Assembly: GCA_013286205.1 (NCBI GenBank)
Contig: JABDGD010000009.1
Coordinates: 3,759-67,758 of the forward strand
Length of the DNA stretch: 64,000 bases
Origin: Candidatus Firestoneibacteriota bacterium
Lineage (GTDB): Bacteria; Oederibacteriota; Muellerivitia; Muellerivitales; Muellerivitaceae
Direction: 5' to 3'
Shown: positions 18,711 to 62,139 of the stretch, piece by piece
How the letters are laid out: each line of letters opens with the position of its first letter
Position numbering within the stretch: position 1 is the stretch's first letter
Position numbers and translations under genes: made by a program
Notes under the pieces: generated by a model
The model's input: the letters and a program-made list of their open reading frames with translations, nothing else
Told to the model about the DNA's origin: nothing
The model's database searches: none

Positions 18711-19304
18711 CTAAATGAGAGACAGTCCCACCAGGAAGGTGAAAGTCCCGTTTTGAATTTGTTGTGTTTGATTGATATTGGTTAGGCCCAGTTCATAGCG
18801 GCCGCTCACCAGGATTCTCGAAAGATTGATCTGCACACCGGCCACCAGGCCCACATCCGTGCTGGTCACATTGGACGTTCCCGAGCTCGCGACATTCGCG
18901 TCAAAAGAGGGACCCAGCAAAATGCCGATCGGCCCAATGACACTGATATCCAAAAGAATGGGAATTTCCACGTAATCCAAGCGGTAGGGGTTTCCGTTAT
19001 ATTTTCCGCCCTTTTGTTCGTACATCAACTCCGGTTGAATCGCGAAAGTAGGTCCGATCGGCAAGCTCGCATAGGCGCCCACCACCCAGCCCAAACGGGA
19101 CGCGAATACGTCATTCACGTTTTGTCCATTTAGGTTGGCTAAGTCAAAACCACCCTCAACACCTAAACGCAGCGGAAAACCGGAACTTTCGCTCGAGCTC
19201 GAGGAATTAGTCGAGCTAGTATCCTCGTCCGCTCTGGCCAACGAACCGCCCACCACCATCAAACACAAACAACCCAACGTTAAAATTAGCTTTTTCATTT
19301 CCAA
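18711..19304 (-). CDS. Outer-membrane beta-barrel protein (PorT/OMP_b-brl_2-like)
   Basis: 197 aa with a signal peptide ending SLARADE. The blocks are LGVEGGFDLANLNG, ASRLGWVVGAY, QPELMYEQKGGKY and YVEIPILLD. There is a paralog at 60761..61342. Confidence 0.7.
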   Translation of the reverse strand: MEMKKLILTLGCLCLMVVGGSLARADEDTSSTNSSSSSESSGFPLRLGVEGGFDLANLNGQNVNDVFASRLGWVVGAYASLPIGPTFAIQPELMYEQKGGKYNGNPYRLDYVEIPILLDISVIGPIGILLGPSFDANVASSGTSNVTSTDVGLVAGVQINLSRILVSGRYELGLTNINQTQQIQNGTFTFLVGLSLI

Positions 19305-19336
19305 ATCTTTCTTTCAGCTTTAATTTGAGTCATTTT

Positions 19337-19468
19337 TCAGATGTAGCGAACCACAAATAGGATCAAAGCAATCACCAGCAGTACGTGAATCGCGCCGCCA
19401 GCGGTGGTGGAAGTCACCAACCCCAACAGCCACAAAACCAACAAAACCACAGCTATCGTAAGAATCAT
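19337..19468 (-). CDS. Lmo0937-family small membrane protein (43 aa)
   Basis: It is below the ORF-track size cutoff. The sequence is MILTIAVVLLVLWLLGLVTSTTAGGAIHVLLVIALILFVVRYI. There is a paralog at 58622..58774. Confidence 0.6.
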   Translation of the reverse strand: MILTIAVVLLVLWLLGLVTSTTAGGAIHVLLVIALILFVVRYI

Positions 19469-19534
19469 CTTCGCCCACCTTTCTTTCCGTTTTTGAGGCG
19501 CGAAAGGTTATTTCACACCTCATTCGGCCGCTTC

Positions 19535-20065
19535 TTATAAGTAGAAATGTCCGCCCAATTCGGGATACCAATTCAGAGTGGCGCCGCTGTTGTAAAACCA
19601 GAGAGTCGGCACAATTTGAAAGTAGATATCAATCGGCACATTCCGCTTGTTGAAGATGTAAGAAACGCCGATCGGCAGACGAGCGGCCACGGCCACTGTA
19701 CTTTGAAGCGATAAATCACCGCCAAAGCCGATATAAAACGGCAATTCTCCGTTGCCATCTCTCATATGAGCGATGTCAAAGTTGTGCCAGAGATAATCCA
19801 ATTGCAGGATCGCCGAACCGCCGTTGTTAAACTTCACCGCGGGCTGAAAAGCGTTCACCGAATCCACCCACAACTTGCCATCCACACCCCAAGCTCCCGG
19901 ATCGCCCAATTCCAAGCCTAAACCAAAATTGCCCCCGTCATAAGTGGGGTGATAATCCTCACCAGCGCGAACAGTCATCGGCGCCAAACTGAGTCCGGCC
20001 ATCACCAAAGCAACCGCTAAACCTTTTTTAAAGCTCGAAAACATAAATCCTCTTTTCGTGATCAT
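19535..20065 (-). CDS. Small outer-membrane beta-barrel-like protein
   Basis: 176 aa with a signal peptide ending MTVRAGED. It has Gly/aromatic-rich alternating strands and the C-terminus GGHFYL. An alternative ATG is at 20044. Confidence 0.5.
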   Translation of the reverse strand: MITKRGFMFSSFKKGLAVALVMAGLSLAPMTVRAGEDYHPTYDGGNFGLGLELGDPGAWGVDGKLWVDSVNAFQPAVKFNNGGSAILQLDYLWHNFDIAHMRDGNGELPFYIGFGGDLSLQSTVAVAARLPIGVSYIFNKRNVPIDIYFQIVPTLWFYNSGATLNWYPELGGHFYL

Positions 20066-20079
20066 CTGGTTAATAACAG

Positions 20080-20457
20080 CTATTGAGACACAACCGCCGC
20101 GACCGCCGCGGCTACCGTCGGAACCTTCGCTTCAGTTCCTTCTGTGGCAAACCCCGCATCCGCCCAATCCTTTATTCCGCCCGGGTAGTAATTGGCTTTA
20201 AAACCCTTTTCCATCAGGCCCTGCGCCGCGTTAAGACCCGCGTTGCAGGTAAATCCGGCGCAATAGGTAATAAAGAACTTTGTTCTTCCGTACTTTTTTC
20301 CAACCGCCTGAACGAAAGCACTCGTGCTGAGCCCCAACGGAAAGTTTTCTGAGCCGGCGATATGAAGCTTCGCGTAATCGTTGTCTGGCAAAACATTCAG
20401 CACCACAACGTTCGGACCCTTCATCTTTTCAACCACTTCTTCTCTGGTCATCGGCAT
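20080..20457 (-). CDS. Rhodanese-domain sulfurtransferase-like protein
   Basis: The active-site loop is ITYCAGFTCNAG. The listed GTG 20490 lies at the predicted sigma-54 start site, so ATG 20457 (MPMTREEVV, RBS AAGAGG) is used. Confidence 0.65.
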   Translation of the reverse strand: MPMTREEVVEKMKGPNVVVLNVLPDNDYAKLHIAGSENFPLGLSTSAFVQAVGKKYGRTKFFITYCAGFTCNAGLNAAQGLMEKGFKANYYPGGIKDWADAGFATEGTEAKVPTVAAAVAAVVSQ

Positions 20458-20518: not shown

Positions 20519-20521
20519 TAT

Positions 20522-20559: not shown

Positions 20560-20625
20560 GTCTCAAAAAACATTTTTAAACTTTCAAATCATCGCTTTTC
20601 AAAATTTTTACAAGAGGCCCGGCAA

Positions 20626-20655
20626 CCAAAACGATAGGCGCTCTTCTCATTTCGA
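20626..20655. promoter_or_regulatory. Candidate EBP enhancer (UAS) dyad
   Basis: CCAAAACGA-N12-TCATTTCGA, with 9-mer starts 21 bp apart. It lies about 108 bp upstream of the -24 box of promoter 20503..20518. Confidence 0.5.
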
Positions 20656-20697
20656 TGGGGCGTCATCATGAATAGTGTCCCCGAACGACTCCCATCC

Positions 20698-20973
20698 TTA
20701 TCCGTTGCGTCTCGCGGGTTTTACAACCCGGATGATCGACAATAGAACGACCGCTCCCAGCACCGCCACTCCCAACACACCCCAAAAACCATAAACCGCG
20801 AAACCAAAGGTATTGGCCAAGAAACCGCCCACAAAAGCCCCCAGGATGCCGATGATGATATCCGCGATAACTCCCAATCCACCGCCCGTAACCAGCACGC
20901 TGGCCAGCCAACCCGCTAAGCCGCCCACTATGAGAAACCAAATTAAATCGTGCATCTGTGTCGCGTCAGTCAT
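20698..20973 (-). CDS. GlsB/YeaQ/YmgE-family stress membrane protein
   Basis: 91 aa, 3 TM, Gly-rich, with the blocks IWFLIVGGLAGWLASVLV and IIGILGAFVGGFLAN. Confidence 0.8.
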   Translation of the reverse strand: MTDATQMHDLIWFLIVGGLAGWLASVLVTGGGLGVIADIIIGILGAFVGGFLANTFGFAVYGFWGVLGVAVLGAVVLLSIIRVVKPARRNG

Positions 20974-21043: not shown

Positions 21044-21105
21044 CGGTTAACCCCTCTCTTAATACCGTTATCTGGCTTCTTTTACTGGAAACAGAGCTTC
21101 GACTC

Positions 21106-21135
21106 TCAATTTGATATGCCCAAATTTCATTTTGA
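21106..21135. promoter_or_regulatory. Candidate EBP enhancer (UAS) dyad shared by divergent promoters
   Basis: TCAATTTGA-N12-TCATTTTGA, with starts 21 bp apart. It lies between promoters 21028..21043 (-) and 21191..21206 (+). Confidence 0.65.
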
Positions 21136-21190
21136 TTGTTCCATTAGCCTTTCAAACTCTGTAAACAGCACGTTTAGCCTTGAAAAGCAG

Positions 21191-21245: not shown

Positions 21246-21824
21246 ATGAAAAAAACACTCGCTTTTCTGTTCATGCTGTCCCTCGCCGTCAGTTCATCGG
21301 CGCGCGCTCAATCCTCACCTGACTACTACAACCGCTGGTTCATCCAGGTGAACGGCGACATGGGTCTGCCTACCGGTCATTTAGCCAACGCAGTTAACAC
21401 AGGCTGGGGCGGCGAAGGCTCCATCGGTGTTCAGGTGGATCGAAATTTGGATGTGTCGGTGGAAAGCGGTTACGACACTTACGCCGCGAAGAACACTACT
21501 TTTAACGCTACCTGGAACATGGTTCCCTTGATTCTAAAGGCGCAGGTCTATGGCGGTAATGGCCGCACAAGGCCTTATGTCCTTTTCGGCGCGGGCGCGG
21601 CCTTCAACTCGCAAACCGCCTCTTTCGGAAACCTCACCGCCAGCAACAGCGAAGTGGATTTTTTGGGCGAAGCAGGCGTGGGCTTATCCATCGGTTTATC
21701 GGACCAGTCCAGTTTCTTTGCTCAGGTCAAAGTAGAAATGGATAACACTTCAACCAATTACGCCGCTGATATGCCGACAGTTTTAGTGCCGATTAACGCC
21801 GGATTTAAATTCGCGTTGAATTAA
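21246..21824 (+). CDS. Small outer-membrane beta-barrel protein (paralog 1 of 3)
   Basis: 192 aa with signal peptide AVSSSARAQS. The blocks GWGGEGSIG, TWNMVPLILKAQVY, SEVDFLGEAGVGLS and DNTSTNYAADMPTVLVPINAGFKFALN are shared with 22614 and 23236. Confidence 0.65.
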   Translation: MKKTLAFLFMLSLAVSSSARAQSSPDYYNRWFIQVNGDMGLPTGHLANAVNTGWGGEGSIGVQVDRNLDVSVESGYDTYAAKNTTFNATWNMVPLILKAQVYGGNGRTRPYVLFGAGAAFNSQTASFGNLTASNSEVDFLGEAGVGLSIGLSDQSSFFAQVKVEMDNTSTNYAADMPTVLVPINAGFKFALN

Positions 21825-21837
21825 TAAGGAACTCTAA

Positions 21838-22170
21838 ATGAAAAAATCCTCTCCATCTCAAAAATCAGACCCACTCACCACTAAGCTGTGGCAGGGCCTG
21901 CTCGGCCTGCTGGGCGGGGTCAAGCCGTTCGTTCACCACTTGGAAGCGGGACTAGAAAAGCATCTTCGTCACTACGCTAAGGTAGTCGAAAAACGAATTC
22001 TTGCTTTTATTTTCCGGGGAACCACCCTGTTCCTCTCAGTTTCATTTATCACTTTTGGTTTTCTGTTTATTTTGATGGACTACGCCAGCCTCTCCAGGGC
22101 CGTAGCCTGTCTTTGCTGCGGATTGTTCGCCCTGGCCGCTTTTGCTATCTCAGTTCAGCTCACTAAATAA
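21838..22170 (+). CDS. Two-TM membrane protein, possibly YqjE/holin-X-like
   Basis: 110 aa with TM helices FRGTTLFLSVSFITFGFLFILM and AVACLCCGLFALAAFAISV. Its position next to an ElaB/YqjD-like gene recalls yqjD-yqjE; the assignment is tentative. Confidence 0.4.
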   Translation: MKKSSPSQKSDPLTTKLWQGLLGLLGGVKPFVHHLEAGLEKHLRHYAKVVEKRILAFIFRGTTLFLSVSFITFGFLFILMDYASLSRAVACLCCGLFALAAFAISVQLTK

Positions 22171-22182
22171 AAGGAGTCTCAA

Positions 22183-22593
22183 ATGAAAGCCACAAAAAGC
22201 ATCAAAAAGATGGGTCAATCCGCCGGAGAAACGGGGATAAAAATCAAAAACGAAATCCAAAAACATTTGAAGCATGGAAAAATTAAACTGAATTGGCTGG
22301 AAGCTCAAATGAACAGCGACAAAAACCGCGCCAAGATTGAGGAAAAAGTGAAAAACGCTAAAGAACAAATTAACCACCTCAAAGAAACCTTCGAGCACTT
22401 CGAGGAAAAAGCCGTTCATTACACCCAAAAGAACCCCAAAAAAGCCTTAGCGATCGCCACTACGGCCGGTATTTTAGCCGCCTCGCTTTGGCACACCTTT
22501 AAAACCAGCAAAAAAACACCTGTCGCCAAAGCCCGCAAAGTTAAAGCGCCGGTAAAAAGCAAAAAGGTTTTAGCTGTTGCCAAATCTAAATAA
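22183..22593 (+). CDS. ElaB/YqjD/YgaM (DUF883)-like membrane-anchored stress protein
   Basis: 136 aa. A coiled-coil N-part is followed by the YTQKNPKKALAIATTAGILAASLW anchor pattern and a Lys-rich tail. Confidence 0.5.
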   Translation: MKATKSIKKMGQSAGETGIKIKNEIQKHLKHGKIKLNWLEAQMNSDKNRAKIEEKVKNAKEQINHLKETFEHFEEKAVHYTQKNPKKALAIATTAGILAASLWHTFKTSKKTPVAKARKVKAPVKSKKVLAVAKSK

Positions 22594-22613
22594 CCACATT
22601 TCAAAGGGCGAAA

Positions 22614-23213
22614 ATGAAAAACATTCTGATGGTGCTGTTACTCGCTTCACTGGGCTTGGCATCTACCGCTTACGCCGATACTGAAATATCGGCCACTAGT
22701 ACGGCCACACCCACTATCGGCACCATCGTTTTTCAAATCGACGGAGAAACCAGTTTTCCCCAGGGACAGCTTGGCAACACCGCGCTTCAAGGCTGGGGCC
22801 CCGAAATATCCGGCGGCTACCGTTTCCCTCAAAACATTACCTTGTCTCTCGAAACAGGTTATGTGGGTTTGGGCTTCAAGGGAAATCAGTTCAATACCAC
22901 CTGGGATATGCTGCCGATTCTCTTGAAAGGACAATACAATTTCAGCAGCGGATATATTCAGCCCTACGTTTTTCTAGGGGCAGGTCTCGCTCTGAACTTT
23001 CAATCGTCTACTTTCGCGGGTACCGCTTACACAGCCAGCGAGGTCGACTTTTTGGAAGAGGCTGGTTTAGGCATTTCCTTCTCCCTCATTGAGCAAATCT
23101 ATCTTTTTATTCAAACCAAAATTGAAATCGATAACACTTCCAGTCATTACGCACCTGATCAACCCACCGTGTTAATTCCGGTCGACGTCGGTTTGGTTAT
23201 GTCAGTTAATTAA
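22614..23213 (+). CDS. Small outer-membrane beta-barrel protein (paralog 2 of 3)
   Basis: 199 aa with a signal peptide ending STAYADTE. It has the blocks TWDMLPILLKGQY, SEVDFLEEAGLGIS and DNTSSHYAPDQPTVLIPVDVGLVMSVN. Confidence 0.65.
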   Translation: MKNILMVLLLASLGLASTAYADTEISATSTATPTIGTIVFQIDGETSFPQGQLGNTALQGWGPEISGGYRFPQNITLSLETGYVGLGFKGNQFNTTWDMLPILLKGQYNFSSGYIQPYVFLGAGLALNFQSSTFAGTAYTASEVDFLEEAGLGISFSLIEQIYLFIQTKIEIDNTSSHYAPDQPTVLIPVDVGLVMSVN

Positions 23214-23235
23214 TTTGCGGCCGAAGGAACGCATT

Positions 23236-23868
23236 ATGAAAGTCTTTTTAATCGCATTTACCTTATTAACTTTCGGCTGGACTTCCCTCTCGCGGGCCGG
23301 CACGCCCCCAAGCCAGAACACCAGTAATTGGGTTGATCCTAACGACAGCGATAACACGGATCCACCCGAAACAGGCTCCTGGTTTATGCAGCTGAACGGC
23401 GATTTAGATTCTCCCACGGGTAATCTGGCCAACTCAGTCAATCAAGGCTGGGGCGGCGAGGCTTCGATCGGTTATCACCTTCCGGAGAATTTTGAGGCAT
23501 CCCTCGAATTAGGTTACGACTCTTACTCCGTCAAAAACTCAACTCAGAACGCCTCCTGGAACGTCATGCCCCTGGTGATCAAGATCACCTATTTAATCGG
23601 CGATGAGTTTATCCAACCCTATGCCTTTATCGCGGGAGGGCTTGCTTTCAACTCAAAATTAGCCAATTCTGAATCTTTCGGCAGCAGTAACAACGAGGCC
23701 GATCTTCTAGGCGAGGCGGGCCTGGGCTTAGCTTTCAACATGACTGAGTCTTCCAGCCTATTCCTTCAATTAAAAATGGAGTTGGATAACACCTCGTCTA
23801 ACTACGCCAACGATCAACCTACGGTCTTAATACCTCTTAATGCTGGTTTTAAATTCTCACTGGACTAA
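23236..23868 (+). CDS. Small outer-membrane beta-barrel protein (paralog 3 of 3)
   Basis: ATG 23236 (MKVFLIAFTLLTFGWTSLSRA, RBS GAAGGAA) is used; the listed TTG 23215 overlaps the previous stop. It has the blocks GWGGEASIG, SWNVMPLVIKITY and DNTSSNYANDQPTVLIPLNAGFKFSLD. Confidence 0.65.
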   Translation: MKVFLIAFTLLTFGWTSLSRAGTPPSQNTSNWVDPNDSDNTDPPETGSWFMQLNGDLDSPTGNLANSVNQGWGGEASIGYHLPENFEASLELGYDSYSVKNSTQNASWNVMPLVIKITYLIGDEFIQPYAFIAGGLAFNSKLANSESFGSSNNEADLLGEAGLGLAFNMTESSSLFLQLKMELDNTSSNYANDQPTVLIPLNAGFKFSLD

Positions 23869-23880
23869 AAGGAATTTCTC

Positions 23881-24087
23881 ATGAAATCACTAGAGATAAA
23901 TCAACGGGTAGGAAATCTAAAAACCGACAAAGTCGGGAGAATCGCCTCCAGTCTTTTTCGATCAGGCAGTGACTTTAACGGCTACGTCATCCTCACCGAT
24001 CATTACGGCTATGAGGTTTGGACCTACGATGTACTTGTGACGTTTCCGCCCGATTTCCTGGAATCCGCTTCTTCACCAACCGTTTAA
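23881..24087 (+). CDS. Hypothetical small protein
   Basis: 68 aa with RBS-like AAGGA upstream. No motif was recognised. Confidence 0.4.
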   Translation: MKSLEINQRVGNLKTDKVGRIASSLFRSGSDFNGYVILTDHYGYEVWTYDVLVTFPPDFLESASSPTV

Positions 24088-24208
24088 AAGGAGCCTGGAA
24101 GACTTTTTCTTGTATGATGAATTTGAGGTCACTCGGATCAAGGTTTCTAACACCTTCGCAGCTTCCGGATCATTTCAAATTCAATTCTAAGATCACGGAA
24201 CCGCCGCA

Positions 24209-27200
24209 ATGATTCAAACTCTATCAGACCTCATTTTCCGCCTTAATTCCCACATTACCGCCCTCACCACGCGGCCAATCGAAGATCCGATCCGTTCTGA
24301 ACTTTTTAGCAGCGAGCGCTTTGACCAGCACGCCCGTTCCCTGGCGGTAGCCCAGACTATTACTGACGATCCCAAGTCCGGCACATTTCTCACTCCCCGT
24401 CTGCGTGAAAACGAGAAAATTCTCCAGGCCTCCTTCCGCTACCTCACCCGGGAGGTTCAAAACAACAAAACCATCAATCCCGCCGGTGAATGGCTGATCG
24501 ATTCCTTTTATGTGGTTGAGGAGCAGTTAAGGGACATCAAACGTTACCTGCCCAACACCTTCTATAACGAGCTGCCCAAATTGGCCGATGGCTTTCTCAA
24601 AGGTTATCCCCGGGTTTATGGCGTGGCCTGGGCCTATGTGGCCCATACAGACAGCCGTTTTGACGCCGAATCGTTGTCAAACTTCGTCCGGTCCTATCAA
24701 CAAGTCCAACCCCTCACTATAGGAGAGCTCTGGGCACTGGCTGTCACCTTGCGGATTGTCATGATCGACAATCTGCGCCGCATCGGGGGGTATCTCGTTA
24801 CCTCTCAAGAGGCCCGTAAGGACGCGGATGCCTTCGCGGATGAGCTTTTGGGCTTGGTGGAGGAACCCTCCAAAAACACCCAACCCACGGCCGCGAAACT
24901 CAAAAAGAAATCAGTCCACCCCGCCTTTTTGGTCCAACTCATCCAGCGTTTACGCTATCAGGACCCCAAAGGCATTCCAGCGGTCAATTGGCTCAATGAA
25001 CGCCTGGCGGAGAAAAAAACCACCGCGGATGACATCGTCACTTCCGTCCACAATCGGCAATCCGCCAATAACCAGACGGTTCGGAACATCATTACCAGTT
25101 TTAGAACCATGTCCTCCTTTGACTGGCAGACTTTTTTCGAGCTGGTCAGCCCCGTTCACAAAATTCTCTGCAGCCACCCCAATTTCATGCTGATGGATTT
25201 TATGACCCGAAACAACTACCGTTCCGCGGTAGAAGAACTGGCCAAAGGCTCTAAAAAAAACGAATTGGAAATTGCCCACCTAGTCATTGAAAAGGCCATG
25301 AGCGCCGACGCCCGTTCCGAAAGGCTTCGGGACCCCGGTTATTATCTTTTAGGCGAGGGCCGCCCTGCTTTTGAAAAATCACTCGGTTTTAAAGTCCTCG
25401 TCAAAAACCGAGTTGTCCGCTTTTATACCGACCATCCAGCCACTGTCTATATCGGCCACGTGGCCCTTCTAACCGCACTCATTCTTACCGTAGCTGAACT
25501 TCTTAATCCCGGGCTTTCCAGACCCCTGATATTCACACTGTTAATTTTAGGCGTCTTTCCCGCCAGTGATCTGGCCGTTTCCAGAGTGAACCGCTTTATC
25601 ACCAAACTCATACCGCCCCGCCATTTGTCCCGCTTCGAGTTTTTAGACGGCCCTCCCGCGGGATTCCGAACCTTCGTCGTCGTCCCTACTCTGTTGGGGT
25701 CCGAAAGCGATATTCCCGACCAGGTTGAAAAACTGGAAGTACATTTCCTTTCCAATCCAGAAGGAGAAGTGCACTTCGCCCTTTTGACGGATTTTATTGA
25801 TTCCAGCACAGAACTCTCTCCTGACGATTTGCAAAAACTCACACTGGCTGAACTGCTCATCGAATCAATCAATTTAAAACACGGTCCCGCGCCTGACGGC
25901 AGCCCGCGTTTTTTTATCTTTCACCGAAAAAGACTTTGGAACCCGGTGGAAGGTAAATGGATGGGATGGGAGCGAAAAAGAGGTAAACTCCACGAATTTA
26001 ATCTGCTTTTGCGCGGGTCCGAACCGACAACTTATTTCACCCCCAAGGGCCAGCCCATTACGGTTCCACCGGGCGTCCGCTATGTGATTACGCTGGATTC
26101 GGATACTAAACTTCCCCCCGGCGTCGTCAGTCAATTAGTCGGTATCCTTGCTCATCCACTCCACCGCGCCCATCTGGATCCGGCATCGAATAAAGTGGTT
26201 GATGGTTATGGCATTCTTCAACCGCGCGTTACCGCCTTTTTGCCCAGCGTCAACGAAAAGTCCATTTTTCAAAAACTCTTTTCCGGCGAAGGCGGTATCG
26301 ATCCCTATGCCTCAGCCGTATCCGATGTTTACCAGGATTTATTCGGTGAAGGCAGTTTTACCGGCAAAGGCATTTATGATCTGGATGCCTACGAAACCTC
26401 GTTAAAAGGCCGTATCCCTGATAACAGCCTGTTGAGCCATGATCTTTTTGAAGGTTCTTTTGCCCGCTGCGGGTACGCCAGTGATCTGGAATTTTTCGAG
26501 GAGTTCCCTTCCCACGCCGAAATTTCCACCGTCCGCAATCACCGCTGGATTCGCGGCGACTGGCAGCTGCTCCCCTGGCTTTTTGGACGGGGTAAAGCCG
26601 ACCTCTCTATCCTTTCCCGCTGGAAGATGCTCGACAATTTACGCCGCAGCCTTTCACCCATCGCCGCCATCGGTATATTTCTTGTGGTTTTCGCCGTGCC
26701 CTCGGTCCGTGCTTTAGACTGGCTCACCCTCACGCTGTTCGCGCTGGCACTCCCTTCGTTGATCACCGTTGTCGAGGACCTGGCCTTTTGGCGCCAAAAT
26801 CTTCACTGGCGGGACCAGTTGGATGAGATTAAGAGAGACTTTTTTTTAGGTGTAGGCCAATTCGCTGTCAATCTGGTCCTTCTGGCCAATCACGCCTGGA
26901 TCCATCTGGACGCGGTCATCCGCACCCTTTGGCGCTTGTGGGTGAGTCACCGCAATCTTCTCGAATGGGTAACCGCCGCTCAGGCCAAAACCGCCGCCGC
27001 CCTGACCCACGCCAGTTTTTGGCGCCGCATGAAAGGCTCGGTGGCGATCGCGGCGATCTCACTGACCGCCGCGATTTTCTTCAACCCCCGGGCACTACCG
27101 GTTTGCCTGCCCTTTGCATTGTTATGGTTTAGCGCTCCCTGGATCGCCCGCTGGATCAGCCTGCCCGAATCCAGAGACAAAATCGAACCCCTCACCCCCG

Positions 27201-36820: not shown

Positions 36821-36870
36821 AGTTTTCCTTTATCTGCATTTTTAAAACCATTTCATTCAAAAGATCGAAA

Positions 36871-37493: not shown

Positions 37494-37565
37494 TGGAGAT
37501 AAAAGAATAAGGCAGGAAATACCCAACAAATCAGGGCATAAATTAGAGCGAATTCTCACATCCCA

Positions 37566-40655: not shown

Positions 40656-40689
40656 AAAATTCCTCTCAAAATCTCAATCACAGTCACCG

Positions 40690-45781: not shown

Positions 45782-45851
45782 CGAAAAGAAATGTCGAAAG
45801 GCCCTGTTTATGGCAAACGGGAACTCAAAAGAAGATATTTGTTTTTTCCAA

Positions 45852-45884
45852 TCAAAATGATGCGGTCCATTTTTTTCATTTTGA
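45852..45884. promoter_or_regulatory. Candidate EBP enhancer (UAS) dyad shared by divergent promoters
   Basis: TCAAAATGA-N15-TCATTTTGA is an exact inverted 9-mer pair with starts 24 bp apart. It lies between promoters 45766 (-) and 45994 (+). Confidence 0.65.
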
Positions 45885-55078: not shown

Positions 55079-55111
55079 GACAACTCCCTCTTCTTATTTA
55101 ATTCTCAGCTT

Positions 55112-55516: not shown

Positions 55517-55531
55517 CAGAATTTATATTCT

Positions 55532-55568
55532 AAAAAAATGGGGCTGGTGTTTCGCGAACACCGGCCCC
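55532..55568 (-). terminator. Rho-independent terminator after 55591..56364
   Basis: A 12-bp stem, GGGGCTGGTGTT (55540-51) pairing with AACACCGGCCCC (55557-68) with one mismatch, is followed on the minus strand by T7. Confidence 0.7.
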
Positions 55569-55590
55569 AGGAAAAGCAACGAAACGAGAA

Positions 55591-56436: not shown

Positions 56437-56539
56437 TCTCGATTTTAGAAAAACTTCTTTTTGCAACCGCCGCGAATCACGAAAGTGTTGATTTTCATTC
56501 ATAGCGGAATTAGTTTTGAAGCCGTTTTAAAAAGAACTA

Positions 56540-56569
56540 TCAAAACGATCTGGCCGATAATCATTTTGA
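56540..56569. promoter_or_regulatory. Candidate EBP enhancer (UAS) dyad
   Basis: TCAAAACGA-N12-TCATTTTGA, with starts 21 bp apart. It lies 104 bp upstream of the -24 box of promoter 56421. Confidence 0.7.
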
Positions 56570-56590
56570 TTCTGGTGTGAAAAGCACCAA

Positions 56591-57613
56591 TCAAAAGGCT
56601 AACTGTAAATTAAGCCCTGTGTCCAATTGGAGAACATCTTGTCCCGCCACCGATGAAAACTGCTGGGTATAGCCCCCCAACGCCTGGATTTTAAGATTCC
56701 ACGCTGGAACGATTGTCCATCCCAGGGAAAGCGGCAGACTGAAAGCTTCGTCTACGCGATTTTCATTTGATGGAACCTGATTGACGTTGTAATAACGGGT
56801 GTAAGCGGTGAAATCAAAAATTAGATTGAGCCGTGAGGTAAACCGGTAGATGAAAGGAATCTCAATCGCTAACGCGCTCGAACCCGTCGTCGAGGCATTT
56901 CCCGAACCATCGTCAATTTGAATCCATCGCTGGCTGACACCAGGGTTGAAATCAATTTCCAGCGGATCAGTTGAATCTCCCTCTTTTCCACCCGTACCCA
57001 AAATTCGGTTGAAGTTGTAACCCAGCTCAACATCATTAACCCAGGCGTGACCTGAGAAATTCGCGGGCACGGTAAAACCAACCTTATAGGCCACAAAGGG
57101 AGCGGCGTCAAAATGGACACCTTCATTGGTGAAATTAACCTGAAATTGCCCTGAAACCGTATTGAGGTTATATCCCGAATCGTCCAGGTAGAGCGCCGTA
57201 TCCGCCTCCAGGATCTCTGTCAAAAGTAAGTTCTCGGACATGGGGGCTGAATGAAGAAACGCGACTTGAGGGTCAAAATTCCAGGCAGGCGTACCTGAGC
57301 CGTTCGCTAACCCTGGATTGGTGTTATAAGTCAGCGGCGCCGTAATCGCGAAAATAGATTCCGACGAGCCAGGTCCCTGAATTCCCGTATTCCCCCCGGA
57401 CAAAAGGTTTAAAAGTTGACTGCTGAGGGACGGCGAGAGTCTTGAATCCACATTAAGGTTTTGTTGAGGCTGGTTCGCCGGATTAGTCAGTGGATTGGAA
57501 ACAATTGGAGCCGTGGGAACCGGCAGCGCAGGAAGAGCAAAAACCTTTTCGATGACCCCTTGAAAAAACAAAAGAAACACTAAAACCATTCCTAATAATT
57601 TTAAAAATGACAT
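56591..57613 (-). CDS. Outer-membrane beta-barrel-like protein
   Basis: 340 aa with a signal peptide. It has alternating amphipathic strands and the C-terminus LDTGLNLQLAF ending in Phe, an OMP beta-signal. Confidence 0.5.
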   Translation of the reverse strand: MSFLKLLGMVLVFLLFFQGVIEKVFALPALPVPTAPIVSNPLTNPANQPQQNLNVDSRLSPSLSSQLLNLLSGGNTGIQGPGSSESIFAITAPLTYNTNPGLANGSGTPAWNFDPQVAFLHSAPMSENLLLTEILEADTALYLDDSGYNLNTVSGQFQVNFTNEGVHFDAAPFVAYKVGFTVPANFSGHAWVNDVELGYNFNRILGTGGKEGDSTDPLEIDFNPGVSQRWIQIDDGSGNASTTGSSALAIEIPFIYRFTSRLNLIFDFTAYTRYYNVNQVPSNENRVDEAFSLPLSLGWTIVPAWNLKIQALGGYTQQFSSVAGQDVLQLDTGLNLQLAF

Positions 57614-57664
57614 TACTTATTTTCCTTGTATCTTTGGATTTAAATCGGCGATTTCTTCACGACC

Positions 57665-57709
57665 AAAAAAATCCCCATGCGATTCATTTGTTGAAAACAC
57701 ATGGGGGAT
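57665..57709 (-). terminator. Rho-independent terminator ending the 58774-57752 operon
   Basis: ATCCCCATG (57671-79) pairs with CATGGGGGAT (57700-09), followed on the minus strand by T7. Confidence 0.7.
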
Positions 57710-57751
57710 CATCACTATTCGAATTTTATTACGATTCAACTGATAACTAAC

Positions 57752-57955
57752 TTAACGATCCCAGTCGTGACGGTCTTCATGCCAAGCATGGTGAGCGCGC
57801 CATTCATCGTCGTAATCGTGATCGTAATGCCATCTTTGATCATGGACGACTTCAACACCTACTCCCGAGCCGTTGACATGCGCGTAGCATCCGGCGTTAA
57901 ACATCGACAAGCCGGTTAGCAAAACAAAGCAAAAACCAAAAGTAAATTTTTTCAT
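57752..57955 (-). CDS. Small His/Asp/Trp-rich lipoprotein
   Basis: RBS GGGAGG precedes ATG 57955: MKKFTFGFCFVLLTGLSMFNAGCYA (lipobox). The mature part reads ...VVHDQRWHYDHDYDDEWRAHHAWHEDRHDWDR. Confidence 0.55.
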   Translation of the reverse strand: MKKFTFGFCFVLLTGLSMFNAGCYAHVNGSGVGVEVVHDQRWHYDHDYDDEWRAHHAWHEDRHDWDR

Positions 57956-57994
57956 CTGAACCTCCCATTTTTTTAACAGCCCCCAACTCAAAAA

Positions 57995-58246
57995 TTACCG
58001 GTTGTTATCAAAAGACGACTCGGTTGAAATTACTCGAATTTGGTTCACCACGCGTCGAACTCCACCGACCCTTTTAACTACCGTATCAATCTGGCGTTTC
58101 TCCTCGAAGTCCTCAGCGCTGCCGGACAACGTCGCCGTACCATCCTTGACCTTCACGTGAAAGTGAGTGCCCATTCCACGCACTTGCTGGTAAATATGGG
58201 TTTCCATTTCCAAATCCCTGGGATCAAAATCAAGTTCATTTGGCAT
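57995..58246 (-). CDS. Small cytoplasmic BON-domain protein (subtype A)
   Basis: 83 aa: HFHVKVKDGTATLSGSAEDFEEKRQIDTVVKRVGGVRRVVNQIRV. Confidence 0.75.
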   Translation of the reverse strand: MPNELDFDPRDLEMETHIYQQVRGMGTHFHVKVKDGTATLSGSAEDFEEKRQIDTVVKRVGGVRRVVNQIRVISTESSFDNNR

Positions 58247-58274
58247 TTCGCGACTCCTTTAAACCAACGGTCAG

Positions 58275-58625
58275 CTAAGCGCTCTTCTGGTTGAAACGCC
58301 ACTGCCGCTCCGCCTCACACCAATCAGGCTCCGGATCATTGAAAGGACATCCGCGGGACTGCCAAAGGTAATAAGCGGCAATTTCTAACTGAGTCACTAT
58401 GTCGCTTGAAGCTGAATGATTTTCAATGAAGCCCGTGTTTTGTGCCGGCCTCATCAGGGGCTTTCGTTTCTCAATGCCCGTATAAGGTTTCTCGGCATTG
58501 TTGAAAGGAGCCAATTTCTGTTTTCCCACCAGAACTTCCAGCAGAGTCGGTTGGCCCAGCGGTAAAAAGTGGTCAGATTCGGACTTTTCCATGCTTTCCA
58601 TCATGCCTTCGCTGTAATCGATCAT
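58275..58625 (-). CDS. DUF2934-domain protein
   Basis: 116 aa. The C-terminal LEIAAYYLWQSRGCPFNDPEPDWCEAERQW fits DUF2934. Its ATG overlaps the upstream stop (ATGA). Confidence 0.55.
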   Translation of the reverse strand: MIDYSEGMMESMEKSESDHFLPLGQPTLLEVLVGKQKLAPFNNAEKPYTGIEKRKPLMRPAQNTGFIENHSASSDIVTQLEIAAYYLWQSRGCPFNDPEPDWCEAERQWRFNQKSA

Positions 58626-58774
58626 GATCCCCGCTTACGGCCTTGTAAAAAGCCAATCAGCACAAAGATCAAAGCCACTACCAGAACCACATGGATTAGG
58701 CCGCCCATCGTGTAAGAGGTCACAAAACCAAGAAGCCAAAGAAACAACAGAACCATCGCGATCGTATAAAGCAT
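58622..58774 (-). CDS. Lmo0937-family small membrane protein (50 aa)
   Basis: It is below the ORF-track cutoff. The sequence is MLYTIAMVLLFLWLLGFVTSYTMGGLIHVVLVVALIFVLIGFLQGRKRGS. RBS GAGAAAGGA is present. Confidence 0.6.
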   Translation of the reverse strand: MLYTIAMVLLFLWLLGFVTSYTMGGLIHVVLVVALIFVLIGFLQGRKRGS

Positions 58775-58825: not shown

Positions 58826-58877
58826 CGTTCCGCAGATCAAATCACGCCCTTTTCGACCAATTCGAATTCACAACCTA

Positions 58878-58906
58878 TCAAACTGATCGCCGCCTTTTCG
58901 TTTTGA
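58878..58906. promoter_or_regulatory. Candidate EBP enhancer (UAS) dyad shared by divergent promoters
   Basis: TCAAACTGA-N11-TCGTTTTGA, lying between promoters 58810 (-) and 59004 (+). Confidence 0.55.
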
Positions 58907-59003
58907 GAGCTAAAGTCGATTTCTTATTCCTCCCCCCCCTCTTAATCCGAGTCTCAAATCATCCGTTATTAAGTCAGGCAAACGATTTAAAGCCCATACC
59001 TTT

Positions 59004-59063: not shown

Positions 59064-59333
59064 TTGGAAAACTTAAAAGAAGAAGCTGACAAAAAATCAG
59101 AAAGCGGATGCGCTTGCCAATGCCACAACCAATGCGGCGCGTGTAAGAGCGGCTGCGGTCATTGCGGTTTTTGGAAGGGTTTAATTATCGGCGTAGCACT
59201 TTGCGCCCTAATCATGTTCATTTGCGATCGGGTTTGTGAAAACCACATGGGCATGGTTCGCGGTTATTACAACAGCCCTTCTATGACACAAAACGCCGAA
59301 CCAGACAATCACATGAACATGAAAAACAAATAA
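59064..59333 (+). CDS. Small Cys-rich membrane protein
   Basis: 89 aa with a TTG start. SGCACQCHNQCGACKSGCGHCGFWKG has 7 Cys in 22 aa. It is followed by the TM helix LIIGVALCALIMFIC. Confidence 0.5.
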   Translation: MENLKEEADKKSESGCACQCHNQCGACKSGCGHCGFWKGLIIGVALCALIMFICDRVCENHMGMVRGYYNSPSMTQNAEPDNHMNMKNK

Positions 59334-59398
59334 GCTTGTTTCACCGCTTTGGGCGGCCATGGCTGCCCAAACCTTTTTTCACCTTAAAGGAAAAGACA

Positions 59399-59623
59399 AT
59401 GAATTCAAACATGGAACAAAATAACGAAAAAATTCGAGCCAACATCAATACCACCACCGGAATTTTAAAAGAGGGCATCGGCCGGGCCTCGGGTGACAAA
59501 GACATGGAAACTGAAGGCACTATTCAAAAAACCAAAGGTCAGGCTCAAAAATTGAGCATCTCAATTCAAGACGCGATTAAAAAGGGCAAAACCTTATTTG
59601 GATTCAAGTCTAAAAATGGATGA
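59399..59623 (+). CDS. CsbD-family general stress protein
   Basis: ATG 59399 (RBS AAAGGAAAAG) is used. NNEKIRANINTTTGILKEGIGRASGDKDMETEGTIQKTKGQAQKL fits the CsbD pattern. Confidence 0.7.
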   Translation: MNSNMEQNNEKIRANINTTTGILKEGIGRASGDKDMETEGTIQKTKGQAQKLSISIQDAIKKGKTLFGFKSKNG

Positions 59624-59843
59624 TCCTTCATTGCCGGATCTTTTTTTCTTTTTGATTTGCGTGGCTTTGTCCTTTTTCTTATGGGACGTGGCTCTGCCTC
59701 ACGCTAAAAAGCAACTCAAACCCGAGCATCAAAAAAACGTAAAGTATTTTATAGCGCTCGTTTCTTTGCTGCTTTTTGGCCTGGCCGTGCACTGTGGCTA
59801 TGATGTGGCCAGCAGTGTCTTTAATTTCAACGATCCTCTATAA
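59616..59843 (+). CDS. Small two-TM membrane protein
   Basis: ATG 59616 overlaps the CsbD stop. The TM helices are LFFFLICVALSFFLWDV and YFIALVSLLLFGLAV. Confidence 0.45.
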   Translation: MDDPSLPDLFFFLICVALSFFLWDVALPHAKKQLKPEHQKNVKYFIALVSLLLFGLAVHCGYDVASSVFNFNDPL

Positions 59844-59875: not shown

Positions 59876-59903
59876 CAAATATCATCAATAACCCCTTAAA
59901 CCT

Positions 59904-60677
59904 TTAGGGGAAAGTGATGTTGTTCGCCAAGAAAGTCACGTTAGCTGTCTGCGCTAACGCGCGTCCTTCTAACGAGGCGCCCGTATTGAAGGTTACTGCC
60001 GTATGAGCCATAACATTTCCCGCGAAGGAAGCTGTGGTATCTAACGAACAATAGCCGGTCACCTGCCAGAAAATGTTGGCAGCTTTGGCCCCGTTGATCA
60101 GATTAACTTTTCGAGCCGAAGCGACTATCAGATTACCCGTCACCTGAATAATGAACACAGCGTTCGAGTTGCCTTGGGCGTCAAAAGTCATATCCGATGT
60201 CGCTAAATGAAGGTCGCCCAAATCCGTATAAAGACCGGCATAAAGCGTTTGACCACCGATATCCCCGCCAGCGGGAATAACAGCTCCACCCGTGCGATGC
60301 GAAGCGTCTGTGTAGGCAGCACCTAAAGCCAGTTCGGCGTTAGTCGCGGCCGTATTGTTAACATCTGTCGCGCCGCCACAGATCACAATAATGCTTCCAG
60401 GAACAGACGGATTGGTACATGCAAGGCCCCCGCAAACCGTTGTGGCTCCCGTGTTGGTAATGCCCGTAGCGGACAACACCCCATAATTAGCCGCCGTACC
60501 TAAAACCACCATAGCCTGAACGGATTGAGCCGTAGCGATAGGCGTTGCGGTAAAAGTAGGCGTGCCAAATCCCCCGCCGGGATGTGAAGGATCTGAAGGA
60601 TTAGAACTGCTGCAACCCACCATCAAAGCCATTGGAAGCAGGGCCATAACTACTAAACTACCGATTAACTTTTTCAT
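59904..60677 (-). CDS. DUF3494 (ice-binding-protein fold) lipoprotein
   Basis: The lipobox is LMVGCSSS. The blocks are AANYGVLSATGITNTGATTVCG, LALGAAYTDA, IGGQTLYAGLY, FDAQGNSNAVFIIQ, NGAKAANIFWQV and GRALAQTANVTF. Confidence 0.75.
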   Translation of the reverse strand: MKKLIGSLVVMALLPMALMVGCSSSNPSDPSHPGGGFGTPTFTATPIATAQSVQAMVVLGTAANYGVLSATGITNTGATTVCGGLACTNPSVPGSIIVICGGATDVNNTAATNAELALGAAYTDASHRTGGAVIPAGGDIGGQTLYAGLYTDLGDLHLATSDMTFDAQGNSNAVFIIQVTGNLIVASARKVNLINGAKAANIFWQVTGYCSLDTTASFAGNVMAHTAVTFNTGASLEGRALAQTANVTFLANNITFP

Positions 60678-60760
60678 TTTATCTCTTTTCTTTATCTATT
60701 CCCGAACCCGAGGGTTCAGGAAGCCAGCACAAACCGGCTCACATCCGGTTAAATCAAAAA

Positions 60761-61342
60761 CTAAATAAACGACAACCCTACTAAGAGCGTAAAAGTGCCG
60801 TTTTGAACGTTTTGAGTGGAATTCACATTGGTCAACCCAATTTCATAACGCCCGCTCACCAAGAACTTGGAGAAGGTCGCTTGAGCTCCAATAATCAACC
60901 CAATATCGGTTTGATTGATATTGGCCACACCCGCCACATTGGTGTCAAAAGCCGGACCCAATAAAATACCGGGATTGAAAACGGGTATGCCAAAGGTGAC
61001 ATCCAAAAGAACCGGAACTTCGATGTAGTTCAGTTGGTAAGCGTTGCCGTTATATTTGCCGCCCTTTTGCTCATAAAGAATTTCCGGCTGAAGCGCTAAA
61101 GACGGGGTGAGAGGCAGGTCGGCAAAAGCGCCGGCCACAAATCCCAGGCGTGAAGCGAAAACATCTTTGGCGTCAGACCCGTTAAATCCCGCCAAATCAA
61201 TACCGCCTTCCACACCCAACCTGGGCCCCGAACCTTCCTCGATCCCGCCTTCAGCTCTCGCCAAAGAACTTCCCGTCGCGAAAAGACACAAACAACTTAT
61301 AGTTAATAAAAACTTTTTCATTTCTTTACCTTTCATCGTCAT
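60761..61342 (-). CDS. Outer-membrane beta-barrel protein (PorT/OMP_b-brl_2-like), paralog of 18711..19304
   Basis: The blocks are LGVEGGIDLAGFNG, ASRLGFVAGAF, QPEILYEQKGGKY and YIEVPVLLD. ATG 61321 (MKKFLLT) is an alternative start. Confidence 0.7.
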   Translation of the reverse strand: MTMKGKEMKKFLLTISCLCLFATGSSLARAEGGIEEGSGPRLGVEGGIDLAGFNGSDAKDVFASRLGFVAGAFADLPLTPSLALQPEILYEQKGGKYNGNAYQLNYIEVPVLLDVTFGIPVFNPGILLGPAFDTNVAGVANINQTDIGLIIGAQATFSKFLVSGRYEIGLTNVNSTQNVQNGTFTLLVGLSFI

Positions 61343-61344
61343 AG

Positions 61345-62139
61345 TTAGGGGTGGGTAATTTTATTGGTTAACAGCGTTACGTTTCCGTTTTCAGCCAATG
61401 CCCGGCCCGTCAAGACCGCTCCCGTATTCAGCGTCACTGAGGTATAGGCCATGATATTTCCCACCATGGAAACCGTGGTATCCATGGAACAATAGCCCGC
61501 TGCCGTCCAAAAAACGTTGGCCGCTTGCGCGCCGTTAGTCAAAATGATTTTGCGGCCCGGACCAATAACCAGATTATTGGTCGACTGGAAAATAAAGATT
61601 GAATTAATATTTCCATTGCCGTTCAAGGTTAAGTCAGACATAGCCACATTGAGATTGCCTCCGCAATTGTATAAACCGGGATAAAGAGTCTGGCCTCCGA
61701 TATCGGCGCCCGCGGGAATAGAAGCTCCACCCGACCGTCCCGAAGCGTCCGTATAAGCCGTTCCCAGGTTTAGTTTGGCGATATTCGCCGCGCCGTCACC
61801 CACGTCAATCGCGCCGCCGCAGGATTCCACAATCGCTGGCGAACCGGTCACCGAGGTCGAACCATTCGGATAACAGCCGTAACCACCGCAGGTCGTCGTC
61901 GGACCGCTATTGGTAATCCCCGTATAAGAGAGAACCACATAATTGGCCGCATTTCCCAAATTAACCGTGGTTTGCAAGGTGGTTTGAGGTGTTGAATAAG
62001 GGGCCTGTGTGGCGGTTGAGGTGGGACCCGGAGTAGACGACCCTCCTACTGGACCCGAACCGCCGCTATTAGCGCAGCCAATCACAAACAACACAGGAAG
62101 CGATACCAATACAAACAAACCGCCAATAAGCTTTCTCAT
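61345..62139 (-). CDS. DUF3494 (ice-binding-protein fold) lipoprotein
   Basis: The lipobox is FVIGCANS. The blocks are AANYVVLSYTGITNSGPTTTCG, LNLGTAYTDA, IGGQTLYPGLY, NGAQAANVFWTA and GRALAENGNVTL. Confidence 0.75.
   Translation of the reverse strand: MRKLIGGLFVLVSLPVLFVIGCANSGGSGPVGGSSTPGPTSTATQAPYSTPQTTLQTTVNLGNAANYVVLSYTGITNSGPTTTCGGYGCYPNGSTSVTGSPAIVESCGGAIDVGDGAANIAKLNLGTAYTDASGRSGGASIPAGADIGGQTLYPGLYNCGGNLNVAMSDLTLNGNGNINSIFIFQSTNNLVIGPGRKIILTNGAQAANVFWTAAGYCSMDTTVSMVGNIMAYTSVTLNTGAVLTGRALAENGNVTLLTNKITHP

Follow-up and report, generated by a model that had tools for sequence, protein, structure and literature searches.

A cluster of predicted sigma-54 promoters, a common upstream palindrome and one XylR/DmpR-type activator gene in front of stress and cell-envelope genes of a Candidatus Firestoneibacteriota bacterium

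Sigma-54 is usually associated with nitrogen, motility and single catabolic operons. In the class of XylR, DmpR, MopR and PoxR, activators with a V4R sensor serve promoters such as Pu and Po of aromatic catabolic operons. The phage-shock system of Enterobacteria provides sigma-54-dependent envelope protection, with PspF as a dedicated activator on an upstream enhancer, and in Borrelia the Rrp2-RpoN-RpoS cascade sets sigma-54 and one activator atop a global adaptive response. General stress regulons of the RpoS, SigB and EcfG type are governed by a sigma-70-family factor that is controlled by proteolysis or partner-switching and reads -35/-10 promoters. The membership of several small protein families, among them BON/OsmY, CsbD/YjbJ, YeaQ/YmgE, HdeD, lmo0937 and superoxide dismutase (SOD), in the RpoS and SigB regulons is established knowledge; for lmo0937, down-regulation by a SigB inhibitor is an indirect SigB link only. 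To our knowledge, little is known about the organisation of the general stress response outside Proteobacteria, Firmicutes and Actinobacteria, and we know of essentially nothing on regulation in uncultivated soil and peat phyla. Here we describe, from an uncultivated bacterium of soil or peat, a 64,000-nucleotide stretch of contig JABDGD010000009.1 (assembly GCA_013286205.1), hereafter the window, in which 16 predicted sigma-54 promoters, a recurrent palindrome and a single gene for an enhancer-binding protein (EBP) of XylR/DmpR type appear to form one regulatory circuit. An initial annotation of this DNA had placed RpoS/SigB-type stress families under sigma-54 and one EBP. The placement of these genes, the palindrome and the co-located activator bear this out, and some of the family labels had to be given up.

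Scanning the window with a generic sigma-54 consensus (TGGCAC-N5-TTGC, at most one mismatch) gave 12 matches against 4.7 expected, a number reached in 0 of 100 shuffles. When all GG-N10-GC sites were examined, a longer common motif emerged, GGCAC-N5-CTTGCTTTA. We used a position weight matrix (PWM) of 24 nt built from the sites themselves, with a threshold of at least 14 bits and first-order Markov shuffles as control. The matrix finds 16 sites of 17-32 bits in the window, where 0.7 are expected by chance and the largest shuffle contained 3. Leave-one-out scores of the 16 promoters are 11-30 bits. All of them carry the GG and GC exactly 10 nt apart in a TGGCAC-N5-TTGCW-like context that defines the sigma-54 class, all are intergenic and oriented towards a gene, and at 14 of them a start codon with a ribosome-binding site follows 35-70 nt downstream. 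They are confined to positions 20503-62216, with none in 1-18700, and the sequences flanking them are mutually unrelated. A site at 17624 (minus strand), with GG-N10-GA spacing, fell below the PWM threshold.

Counting k-mers over the 300 bp upstream of the promoters brought out ATCAAAATG and its complement CATTTTGAT. The former is one half of an inverted repeat, ATCAAAAYGA-N11-15-TCRTTTTGAT, of which the window holds five strict pairs against 0.07 expected. With up to 4 of 20 mismatches allowed, a copy is present at 13 of the 16 promoters, its centre 57-220 bp upstream of the -24 GG, and five copies lie between divergent promoter pairs. Upstream activating sequences (UAS) of EBPs typically lie about 80-200 bp from their promoters. 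We regard the palindrome as a putative UAS, or enhancer.

The candidate regulator is encoded at 48602..50221 on the minus strand. The 539-aa protein consists of the Pfam domains XylR_N, V4R, AAA+ (Sigma54_activat) and HTH_8. Its Sigma54_activat domain (PF00158) scores 235 bits, the GAFTGA loop and a Walker A motif, GESGSGKE, can be read in the sequence, and together with the C-terminal Fis-type helix-turn-helix (HTH) these features make it an EBP. No second sigma-54 activator was found among the open reading frames (ORFs) scanned across the window. The sensor matches MopR, PoxR and CapR (DmpR) with E=2e-15; in the alignment with MopR the zinc ligands C-E-C-C and a Trp equivalent to MopR W134 are conserved, and with XylR_N and V4R around this zinc site the protein falls into the XylR/DmpR subfamily. 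It shares with XylR, DmpR, MopR and PoxR the domain order, the zinc site, the W134-type Trp and the GAFTGA loop, and the locus resembles their targets in that a palindrome, the putative enhancer, precedes the -24/-12 promoters by about 100 bp. Several differences stand against these likenesses. The sensor has about 28% identity, the phenol-contacting residue of MopR, His106, aligns to Leu, 16 promoters are present instead of one or two, and the targets are about 45 stress and envelope genes, not catabolic operons. Profile searches of the window ORFs found no catabolic operon behind any of the 16 promoters, and with the His106 contact replaced as well the protein lacks these two marks of an aromatic sensor. 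It reaches no NCBIfam equivalog, the only full-length match being a MobR-type model at 327 bits (cutoff 999). We propose this activator as master regulator of the units described below.

The proposed circuit would work as follows. HTH dimers of the activator would bind ATCAAAAYGA-N11-15-TCRTTTTGAT. On the model of XylR, DmpR and MopR, its sensor would hold the ATPase off until a small molecule binds; the ligand-bound activator would then oligomerise on the palindrome, contact the closed sigma-54 holoenzyme via DNA looping and open the promoter by ATP hydrolysis. A sensor of the ligand-binding XylR/DmpR type argues for one defined chemical signal and not for many inputs. The activator gene itself is preceded by a sigma-54-type promoter, P10 (50292..50307, minus strand; 21.5 bits), with a weak palindrome copy at 50358..50391 (4 mismatches, 68 bp away), which points to positive autoregulation and a probably switch-like circuit.

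Orthologs of the activator form more than 120 clusters with 63-85% identity over the full length, and in 115 of them the sensor domain is well conserved. Among species-representative genomes, candidate division FCPU426 (one genome, 73% identity to the activator) is the only close relative with a name; a 65% ortholog occurs in a genome of 64% GC labelled Planctomycetes (locus L008). We read seven ortholog loci, L003 and L006-L011, with activator identities of 65-76%; the FCPU426 genome and the one labelled Planctomycetes contribute one each. The half-site motif and sigma-54-type promoter matches are present in all seven, the latter reaching only 12-15 bits in L007 and L008, and full palindromes occur in every one except L008, which has two half-sites only. 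The ortholog in L003 is, like the window activator, preceded by a promoter (28 bits). Recurrent neighbours are a pirin-like gene, the set rhodanese-outer-membrane protein (OMP)-SOD, YceI, Cu/Zn SOD (Sod_Cu) and DUF2934. The pirin-like gene is the most constant of these (window, L003, L006, L008, L009 and L010). Behind a promoter, the order rhodanese-outer-membrane barrel-Fe/Mn SOD(-DUF7130) is kept in L006 and L009; L010 retains rhodanese-DUF5670-OMP-DUF7130 with no annotated SOD, and a ferritin gene lies inside the rhodanese cluster of ortholog loci. In L008, a Usp-GroES-GroEL cluster is found downstream of the activator ortholog, after a promoter match of 15 bits. A test suggested with the initial annotation, whether island and UAS motif co-occur in related contigs, thus came out positive.

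The palindrome alone was also used to scan public metagenome contigs, which gave at least 120 loci; the counts that follow are among the matches listed. An outward sigma-54 promoter within 250 bp is found at 55 of 121 palindrome sites, and on both sides at 25. Conversely, 80 of the 111 promoter matches in 681 kb are palindrome-linked. The distances between palindrome and promoter cluster near 58, 68, 79, 102, 110 and 120 bp, with a periodicity of 10-10.7 bp (R about 0.5) that is inflated by the phylogenetic non-independence of the loci, so that the nominal p-value is too optimistic. Such a periodicity suggests the face-of-helix constraint expected of an enhancer acting by looping. The first genes behind the palindrome-linked promoters are homologs of window regulon genes in 40 of 72 cases. 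Ice-binding proteins are the commonest (10), followed by DUF2934 and the 'YYYY' family (7 each) and rhodanese (3); BON, CsbD, Transgly_assoc, LysM, pirin and outer-membrane barrel homologs occur as well. Other first genes encode DnaK (L020), SPFH/band-7 and ferritin-like proteins, response regulators, a HAMP-repeat protein and CheW. The 'YYYY' family, represented in the window at 55112-55504 (minus strand), consists of secreted proteins that are often duplicated to about 250 aa and have no Pfam or NCBIfam match. All 14 homologs in palindrome loci (L015, L022, L024, L079, L120, L124) stand behind a palindrome-linked promoter, which makes this family the most faithful regulon member. Enhancer-promoter pairs also precede signalling genes, namely a STAS-domain (anti-sigma-antagonist-like) protein (L009, 12778-13158, minus strand), response regulators paired divergently with a HAMP-repeat protein that is probably a kinase (L014/L031/L117), and CheW (L131). 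The regulon may therefore feed into further regulatory cascades.

How does this locus relate to the systems known so far? A regulon of sigma-54 and an EBP is of a known kind. New are the activator subfamily, the enhancer and the unusually large clustered target set (16 promoters within 42 kb), whose functional class is as a rule the domain of stress sigma factors of the sigma-70 family. PspF differs in that it has no sensor domain, is held off by PspA and serves two promoters only; no psp genes were found among the window ORFs scanned. In the Borrelia cascade sigma-54 drives essentially the rpoS promoter alone and RpoS does the rest, whereas here each unit would be addressed directly. With the RpoS, SigB and EcfG regulons the window has the families named at the outset in common, and its relatives add Dps-type ferritin and Usp. 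The promoters, however, are of the -24/-12 type, which need an ATP-driven activator, and no sigma-70-family gene was found among the window ORFs scanned. The window system is therefore not a member of these regulons and is possibly a functional analogue of them. The initial annotation had spoken of a lineage-specific replacement of the general stress sigma factor. As far as we know, RpoS, SigB and EcfG each occur in other phyla only, and since the nearest named relative is FCPU426, 'independent solution' is the safer term. For Planctomycetia and Bacteroidota, a recent comparative study predicted that genes for chaperones, proteases, Usp and MscS have sigma-54 promoters in front of them (PMC12316311, 2025). 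As in the Usp-GroES-GroEL cluster of L008 and with DnaK in L020, sigma-54 promoters there precede stress and proteostasis genes outside Proteobacteria. The parts of that study available to us report promoter enrichment per COG and name no activator, enhancer or clustered regulon, nor do they mention small stress-protein or ice-binding targets (PMC12316311). A circuit of the window type may supply the activator for part of those lineages. Our literature search returned nothing tying sigma-54 to CsbD/BON-type families or to ice-binding proteins, and FCPU426 appeared in the titles and abstracts of surveys only.

The predicted output comprises about 45 genes in 16 units and reaches from the small gene beyond SOD (17704) to the last promoter's palindrome (62339), slightly further on both sides than the 18711-62139 given initially. 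Promoter P1 (20503..20518, minus strand; CGGCACGTTCCTTGCT; 31.1 bits) has its UAS at 20625..20656 (2 of 20 mismatches, centre 123 bp from the -24 GG) and lies 45 nt ahead of the ATG of a rhodanese (20080-20457; Pfam). This gene opens unit 1 (17704..20457, minus strand), which continues with a 176-aa protein of no assigned family (19535-20065), an lmo0937-family peptide found by tblastn that passes the NCBIfam cutoff (19340-19489), an outer-membrane beta-barrel identified by hidden Markov model (HMM; 18711-19304), an Fe/Mn SOD (17959-18621; C-terminal domain 89.9 bits, N-terminal domain below cutoff) and a small CxxC protein (17704-17949). The SOD gene, to which the initial annotation had given a weak -24/-12 candidate, is assigned to unit 1 because of the conserved gene order in L006 and L009; the candidate itself, at 18633 (minus strand), is below the PWM threshold. 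Rhodanese and SOD in one operon, with DoxX (53953-54369, minus strand) in another unit, recall the DoxX-SseA-SodA membrane oxidoreductase complex of mycobacteria. P2 (21028..21043, minus strand; 23.1 bits) is followed after 54 nt by the ATG of unit 2, a Transgly_assoc (GlsB/YeaQ/YmgE family) membrane protein (20698..20973, minus strand; PF04226, 37.6 bits). It shares a UAS at 21105..21136 (3 mismatches; 78 and 71 bp away) with the divergent P3 (21191..21206, plus strand; 25.3 bits), which faces an ATG at 21246, 39 nt on. Unit 3 (21246..33073, plus strand) encodes three paralogous outer-membrane barrel-like proteins (21246-21824, 22614-23213, 23215-23868), a protein with two transmembrane (TM) segments (21838-22170), a coiled-coil C-tail-anchored protein (22183-22593), a 68-aa ORF and a cyclic beta-1,2-glucan synthase (24209-33073). 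The synthase, already recognised in the initial annotation, matches PDB 8RF0 (NdvB) with 2430 bits as well as 8RF9, and its GH94 domains are confirmed. Proteins of the Cgs/NdvB/ChvB type have about 2800-2950 aa and a GH94 C-terminal domain, and the window protein is full-length by this measure. P4 (33179..33194, plus strand; 19.0 bits) has no recognisable palindrome (best upstream match 6 of 20 mismatches) and precedes unit 4, a 258-aa membrane protein of no known family (33243..34019, plus strand). Next to it, a small secreted protein (34117-34491, minus strand) has no promoter match in the window. A close homolog in L053 comes first behind a palindrome-linked promoter, and regulon membership thus varies between relatives.

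P5 (37478..37493, minus strand; TGGCACTTTTCTTGCT; 28.4 bits) matches the consensus exactly and has a perfect UAS at 37565..37596 (ATCAAAATGA-N12-TCATTTTGAT; 0 mismatches; 88 bp away). Unit 5 (36500..37412, minus strand) contains a BON protein (37170-37412), a lipoprotein (36871-37173) and a 106-aa protein of no assigned family (36500-36820). It may continue into a further lipoprotein (35526-36221) and DUF2061 (35270-35500), for which a credible promoter of their own is lacking: a 17th candidate at 36246 (minus strand) was dropped at a leave-one-out score of -1 bit. The DUF2061 protein listed initially is right in family by HMM and belongs to the set only if unit 5 extends this far. P6 (39136..39151, minus strand; 28.1 bits) has a distal UAS at 39354..39384 (3 mismatches, 218 bp away) and a single half-site nearby (39257-39265); 60 nt on starts unit 6, an ice-binding-like lipoprotein of 360 aa (37993..39075, minus strand; PF11999, 195.6 bits). 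P7 (40064..40079, minus strand; 23.4 bits) is without palindrome and has a leader of 191 nt, which makes an RNA element or a second regulator possible. Its unit 7 is a 107-aa protein (39549..39872, minus strand) with a terminator-like hairpin near it (39452-39421). This protein is a paralog of 36500-36820 (minus strand) in unit 5, both having a basic C-terminus. P8 (45766..45781, minus strand; TGGCACCGTTCTTGCT; 27.0 bits), another exact consensus match, and the divergent P9 (45994..46009, plus strand; 28.5 bits) have in common a UAS with perfect half-sites and N15 (45851..45885; 0 mismatches) and an additional half-site (45912-45920). Unit 8 (40410..45704, minus strand) encodes a DUF7948 and SBBP beta-propeller protein (42333-45704), an FlgD_ig-OmpA protein (40690-42360) and a BON protein (40410-40655). 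P9 has counterparts at the equivalent position in L003, L006 and L009 and stands in front of unit 9 (46131..48473, plus strand), a pirin-like cupin (46131-46916; start taken from the gene call on contig L001) and a receiver-GGDEF-HEAT protein (46956-48473).

Beyond the activator gene, P11 (53402..53417, minus strand; 17.4 bits) and the divergent P12 (53571..53586, plus strand; 24.8 bits) share a UAS at 53480..53510 (3 mismatches). Unit 11 (50434..53365, minus strand) consists of a Zn-ribbon protein (52691-53365), a CHASE3-PAS-GGDEF protein (51101-52627) and DedA/VTT (50434-51081), and unit 12 is a DUF2934 protein (53647..53856, plus strand). Two diguanylate cyclases are thus part of the regulon (46956-48473, plus strand; 51101-52627, minus strand), which suggests a cyclic di-GMP (c-di-GMP) output layer. 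P13 (56421..56436, minus strand; 28.8 bits), with a perfect UAS (56539..56570; 0 mismatches; 119 bp away), leads the four genes of unit 13 (53953..56364, minus strand): a secreted K/D/E-rich coiled-coil protein (55591-56364), the 'YYYY' family protein, HdeD/DUF308 (54506-55078) and, downstream of it as initially described, the HMM-supported DoxX. P14 (58810..58825, minus strand; 28.2 bits) and the divergent P15 (59004..59019, plus strand; 26.5 bits) have a common UAS at 58877..58907 (2 mismatches). Unit 14 (56591..58774, minus strand) carries an lmo0937-family peptide (58622-58774), DUF2934 (58275-58625), BON (57995-58246), a 67-aa lipoprotein (57752-57955) and a 340-aa protein of no assigned family (56591-57613), and unit 15 (59064..59843, plus strand) a Cys-rich membrane protein (59064-59333), CsbD (59399-59623) and an 81-aa ORF. 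P16 (62201..62216, minus strand; 32.0 bits) has a borderline UAS at 62308..62339 (5 mismatches, 108 bp away); unit 16 (59904..62139, minus strand) encodes ice-binding-like lipoproteins (61345-62139 and 59904-60677) and an outer-membrane beta-barrel (60761-61342). The three PF11999/DUF3494 lipoproteins are mutually paralogous, have Thr/Asn-rich linkers and all lie in sigma-54 units. Their PF11999 scores of 155-196 bits predict the family fold; in unit 16 the NCBIfam model IBP_CFB gives 108 bits, below its cutoff of 400. These three direct targets were absent from the initial list.

Most families that had been named by eye withstood the profile searches. BON, CsbD, Transgly_assoc, DUF2934, DUF308/HdeD, DoxX, DUF2061, rhodanese and Fe/Mn SOD score above the Pfam gathering thresholds, and several small outer-membrane beta-barrels are supported by HMM, in agreement with the two DUF2934 proteins, CsbD, GlsB/YeaQ/YmgE, HdeD, rhodanese and small barrels listed initially. 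The two Lmo0937-type peptides (lmo0937/DUF5670) reach 53 and 50 bits, the cutoff of lmo0937_fam_TM being 30. The count of three small BON proteins out of four behind promoters agrees with the HMM results, the fourth (13387-13650) having no sigma-54 promoter. Three labels were lost. The proposed ElaB/YqjD-like anchor has no match to PF05957 (DUF883) at E<=5 nor to NCBIfam, its resemblance being a coiled coil with a C-terminal TM segment. Its YqjE-like partner has none to PF07332 at E<=5 nor to NCBIfam and resembles YqjE in its small 2-TM architecture only. For the LEA-like coiled-coil proteins, no LEA match was obtained with 55591-56364 at E<=5 nor in NCBIfam, and the likeness is compositional only. 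Taken by theme, the regulon comprises small membrane or 'general stress' proteins (BON, CsbD, Transgly_assoc, lmo0937-family, DUF2934, HdeD), redox defence (Fe/Mn SOD, rhodanese, DoxX, pirin-like) and envelope remodelling (small outer-membrane barrels, the OmpA-type protein, DedA, cyclic beta-1,2-glucan synthase), together with the three ice-binding-like lipoproteins and the two diguanylate cyclases; relatives add chaperones and iron-storage proteins.

From the sequence evidence, we give a probability of roughly 0.8 to a clade-conserved architecture that combines a single activator with one enhancer and many sigma-54 promoters. Sequence analysis establishes the family assignments and the motifs, including how often, where and in what phase they occur and how well they are conserved; we infer that the activator binds the palindrome, that a ligand controls it, that stress induces the genes and that the genome has rpoN. 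A PWM scores the very sites on which it was trained, and one might hold the motifs for chance matches or for a repeated non-regulatory intergenic element. This is effectively refuted, since the generic consensus was enriched before any PWM was made, the leave-one-out scores stay high where shuffles yield 0.7 matches, the surrounding sequences are unrelated, and the palindrome, found independently, predicts promoters in unrelated contigs. It is also improbable, in our estimate, that several activators elsewhere in the genome serve these promoters, with the palindrome belonging to another protein and the island activator controlling only its neighbours. Such a division of labour would suit P4 and P7, which lack a palindrome, and P16, where it is weak; moreover, our view is limited to the window, not the genome, and co-occurrence is the sole link between activator and palindrome. 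Yet the palindrome is common to 13 of the 16 promoters, a copy stands at the activator's own promoter, its spacing from the promoters is helically phased as for an enhancer, and in genomes that range from 48 to 64% GC an activator ortholog is accompanied by this palindrome and this type of promoter.

As to function, we read the target set, with a probability of roughly 0.5, as a programme that protects the cell envelope under several stresses; it would be the counterpart of a general stress regulon, with sigma-54 at its base. Several points weigh against this reading and the architecture beneath it. The whole case is in silico, and the window and 927 kb of related loci, in which no RpoN box was found, showed neither rpoN nor an alternative sigma gene. 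The word 'general' rests on gene families, many without known biochemical function, and about a third of the regulon genes belong to no family at all (Pfam at E<=5, NCBIfam). Other activators may have a part in the regulon, because P4 and P7, and arguably P16, have no good palindrome. With Leu in place of His106, MopR gives no guide to the ligand, and the metagenome loci are not phylogenetically independent. The characterised relatives of the sensor (MopR, PoxR, CapR/DmpR and the MobR model) all bind aromatic effectors, the steadiest neighbour of the activator is a pirin-like protein with a quercetinase-type C-terminal cupin, and related loci add Zn-ADH, YceI, SRPBCC/polyketide-cyclase-like, Fe/Mn and Cu/Zn SOD and ferritin genes. 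These observations would fit a narrow chemical-stress response, in which the sensor detects phenolics (of plants or peat, for instance), quinones, solvent-like compounds or alcohols; its core output would be detoxification and redox defence, and the small stress, envelope and ice-binding proteins would be lineage-specific additions. We consider this unlikely, though worth keeping in mind: no promoter is followed by a catabolic operon, the phenol-binding His is replaced, the commonest metagenome targets among the matches listed are DUF2934, 'YYYY' and ice-binding proteins and not detoxification enzymes, and DnaK as first gene in L020 together with Usp-GroES-GroEL in L008 points to a broader role in proteostasis. 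Rather less probable again is a programme for survival of freeze-thaw or drying, in which cold, freezing or desiccation would turn on ice-binding proteins together with periplasmic cyclic glucans, membrane stabilisers and hydrophilic coiled-coil proteins. Among the direct targets in the window are three ice-binding-like lipoproteins, their homologs lead the list of first genes in the metagenome matches listed, and the set includes the cyclic beta-1,2-glucan synthase and K/D/E-rich secreted coiled-coil proteins. Membership in PF11999, however, does not establish ice activity, and the NCBIfam score is below cutoff; the hydrophilic proteins are not LEA by HMM, the set has no cold-shock proteins or desaturases, and the 10 kb on either side of the activator orthologs in L006-L011 contain SODs, ferritin and YceI but no ice-binding gene.

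The left 18.7 kb of the window has no sigma-54 promoter. It contains paralogs of regulon genes (DedA, rhodanese, BON and a secreted coiled-coil protein) and a LysM protein, at 2632-3267, 4638-5012, 13387-13650, 16525-17043 and 17088-17510, all on the minus strand, so that regulated and unregulated copies coexist. A Thr/Ser/Pro-rich ORF of more than 847 aa (1 to about 2540, minus strand) runs past the left window edge and probably encodes a surface protein, its composition resembling that of the linkers in the ice-binding lipoproteins. Neither the Rfam nor the tRNA scan of the window gave a match, and since the region is bounded by no integrase or tRNA gene, it bears no mark of a mobile island.

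The analysis provides a complete predicted circuit, with a defined activator, a 32-bp enhancer and a promoter type, whose targets can be read directly from metagenomes. Dozens of DUF-type proteins (DUF2934, the lmo0937-family, the 'YYYY' family and others) are thereby tied to one regulon and given a shared physiological context. The palindrome could be used as a marker of programme activation in metatranscriptomes of freeze-thaw or drought, and the V4R sensor is a possible biosensor scaffold once its ligand is found. Tentatively, and with the odds somewhat against so broad a claim, one may go further: FCPU426 and allied uncultivated lineages would run their main multi-stress or dormancy programme by sigma-54 and one ligand-gated, autoregulated XylR-type activator, a fourth design after RpoS, SigB and EcfG, with ice-binding proteins, cyclic glucans, chaperones and c-di-GMP synthesis as direct outputs and a single endogenous or environmental small molecule as trigger. 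If the multi-stress reading is true, sigma-54, which is silent without its activator, would serve a broad protective programme in these bacteria.

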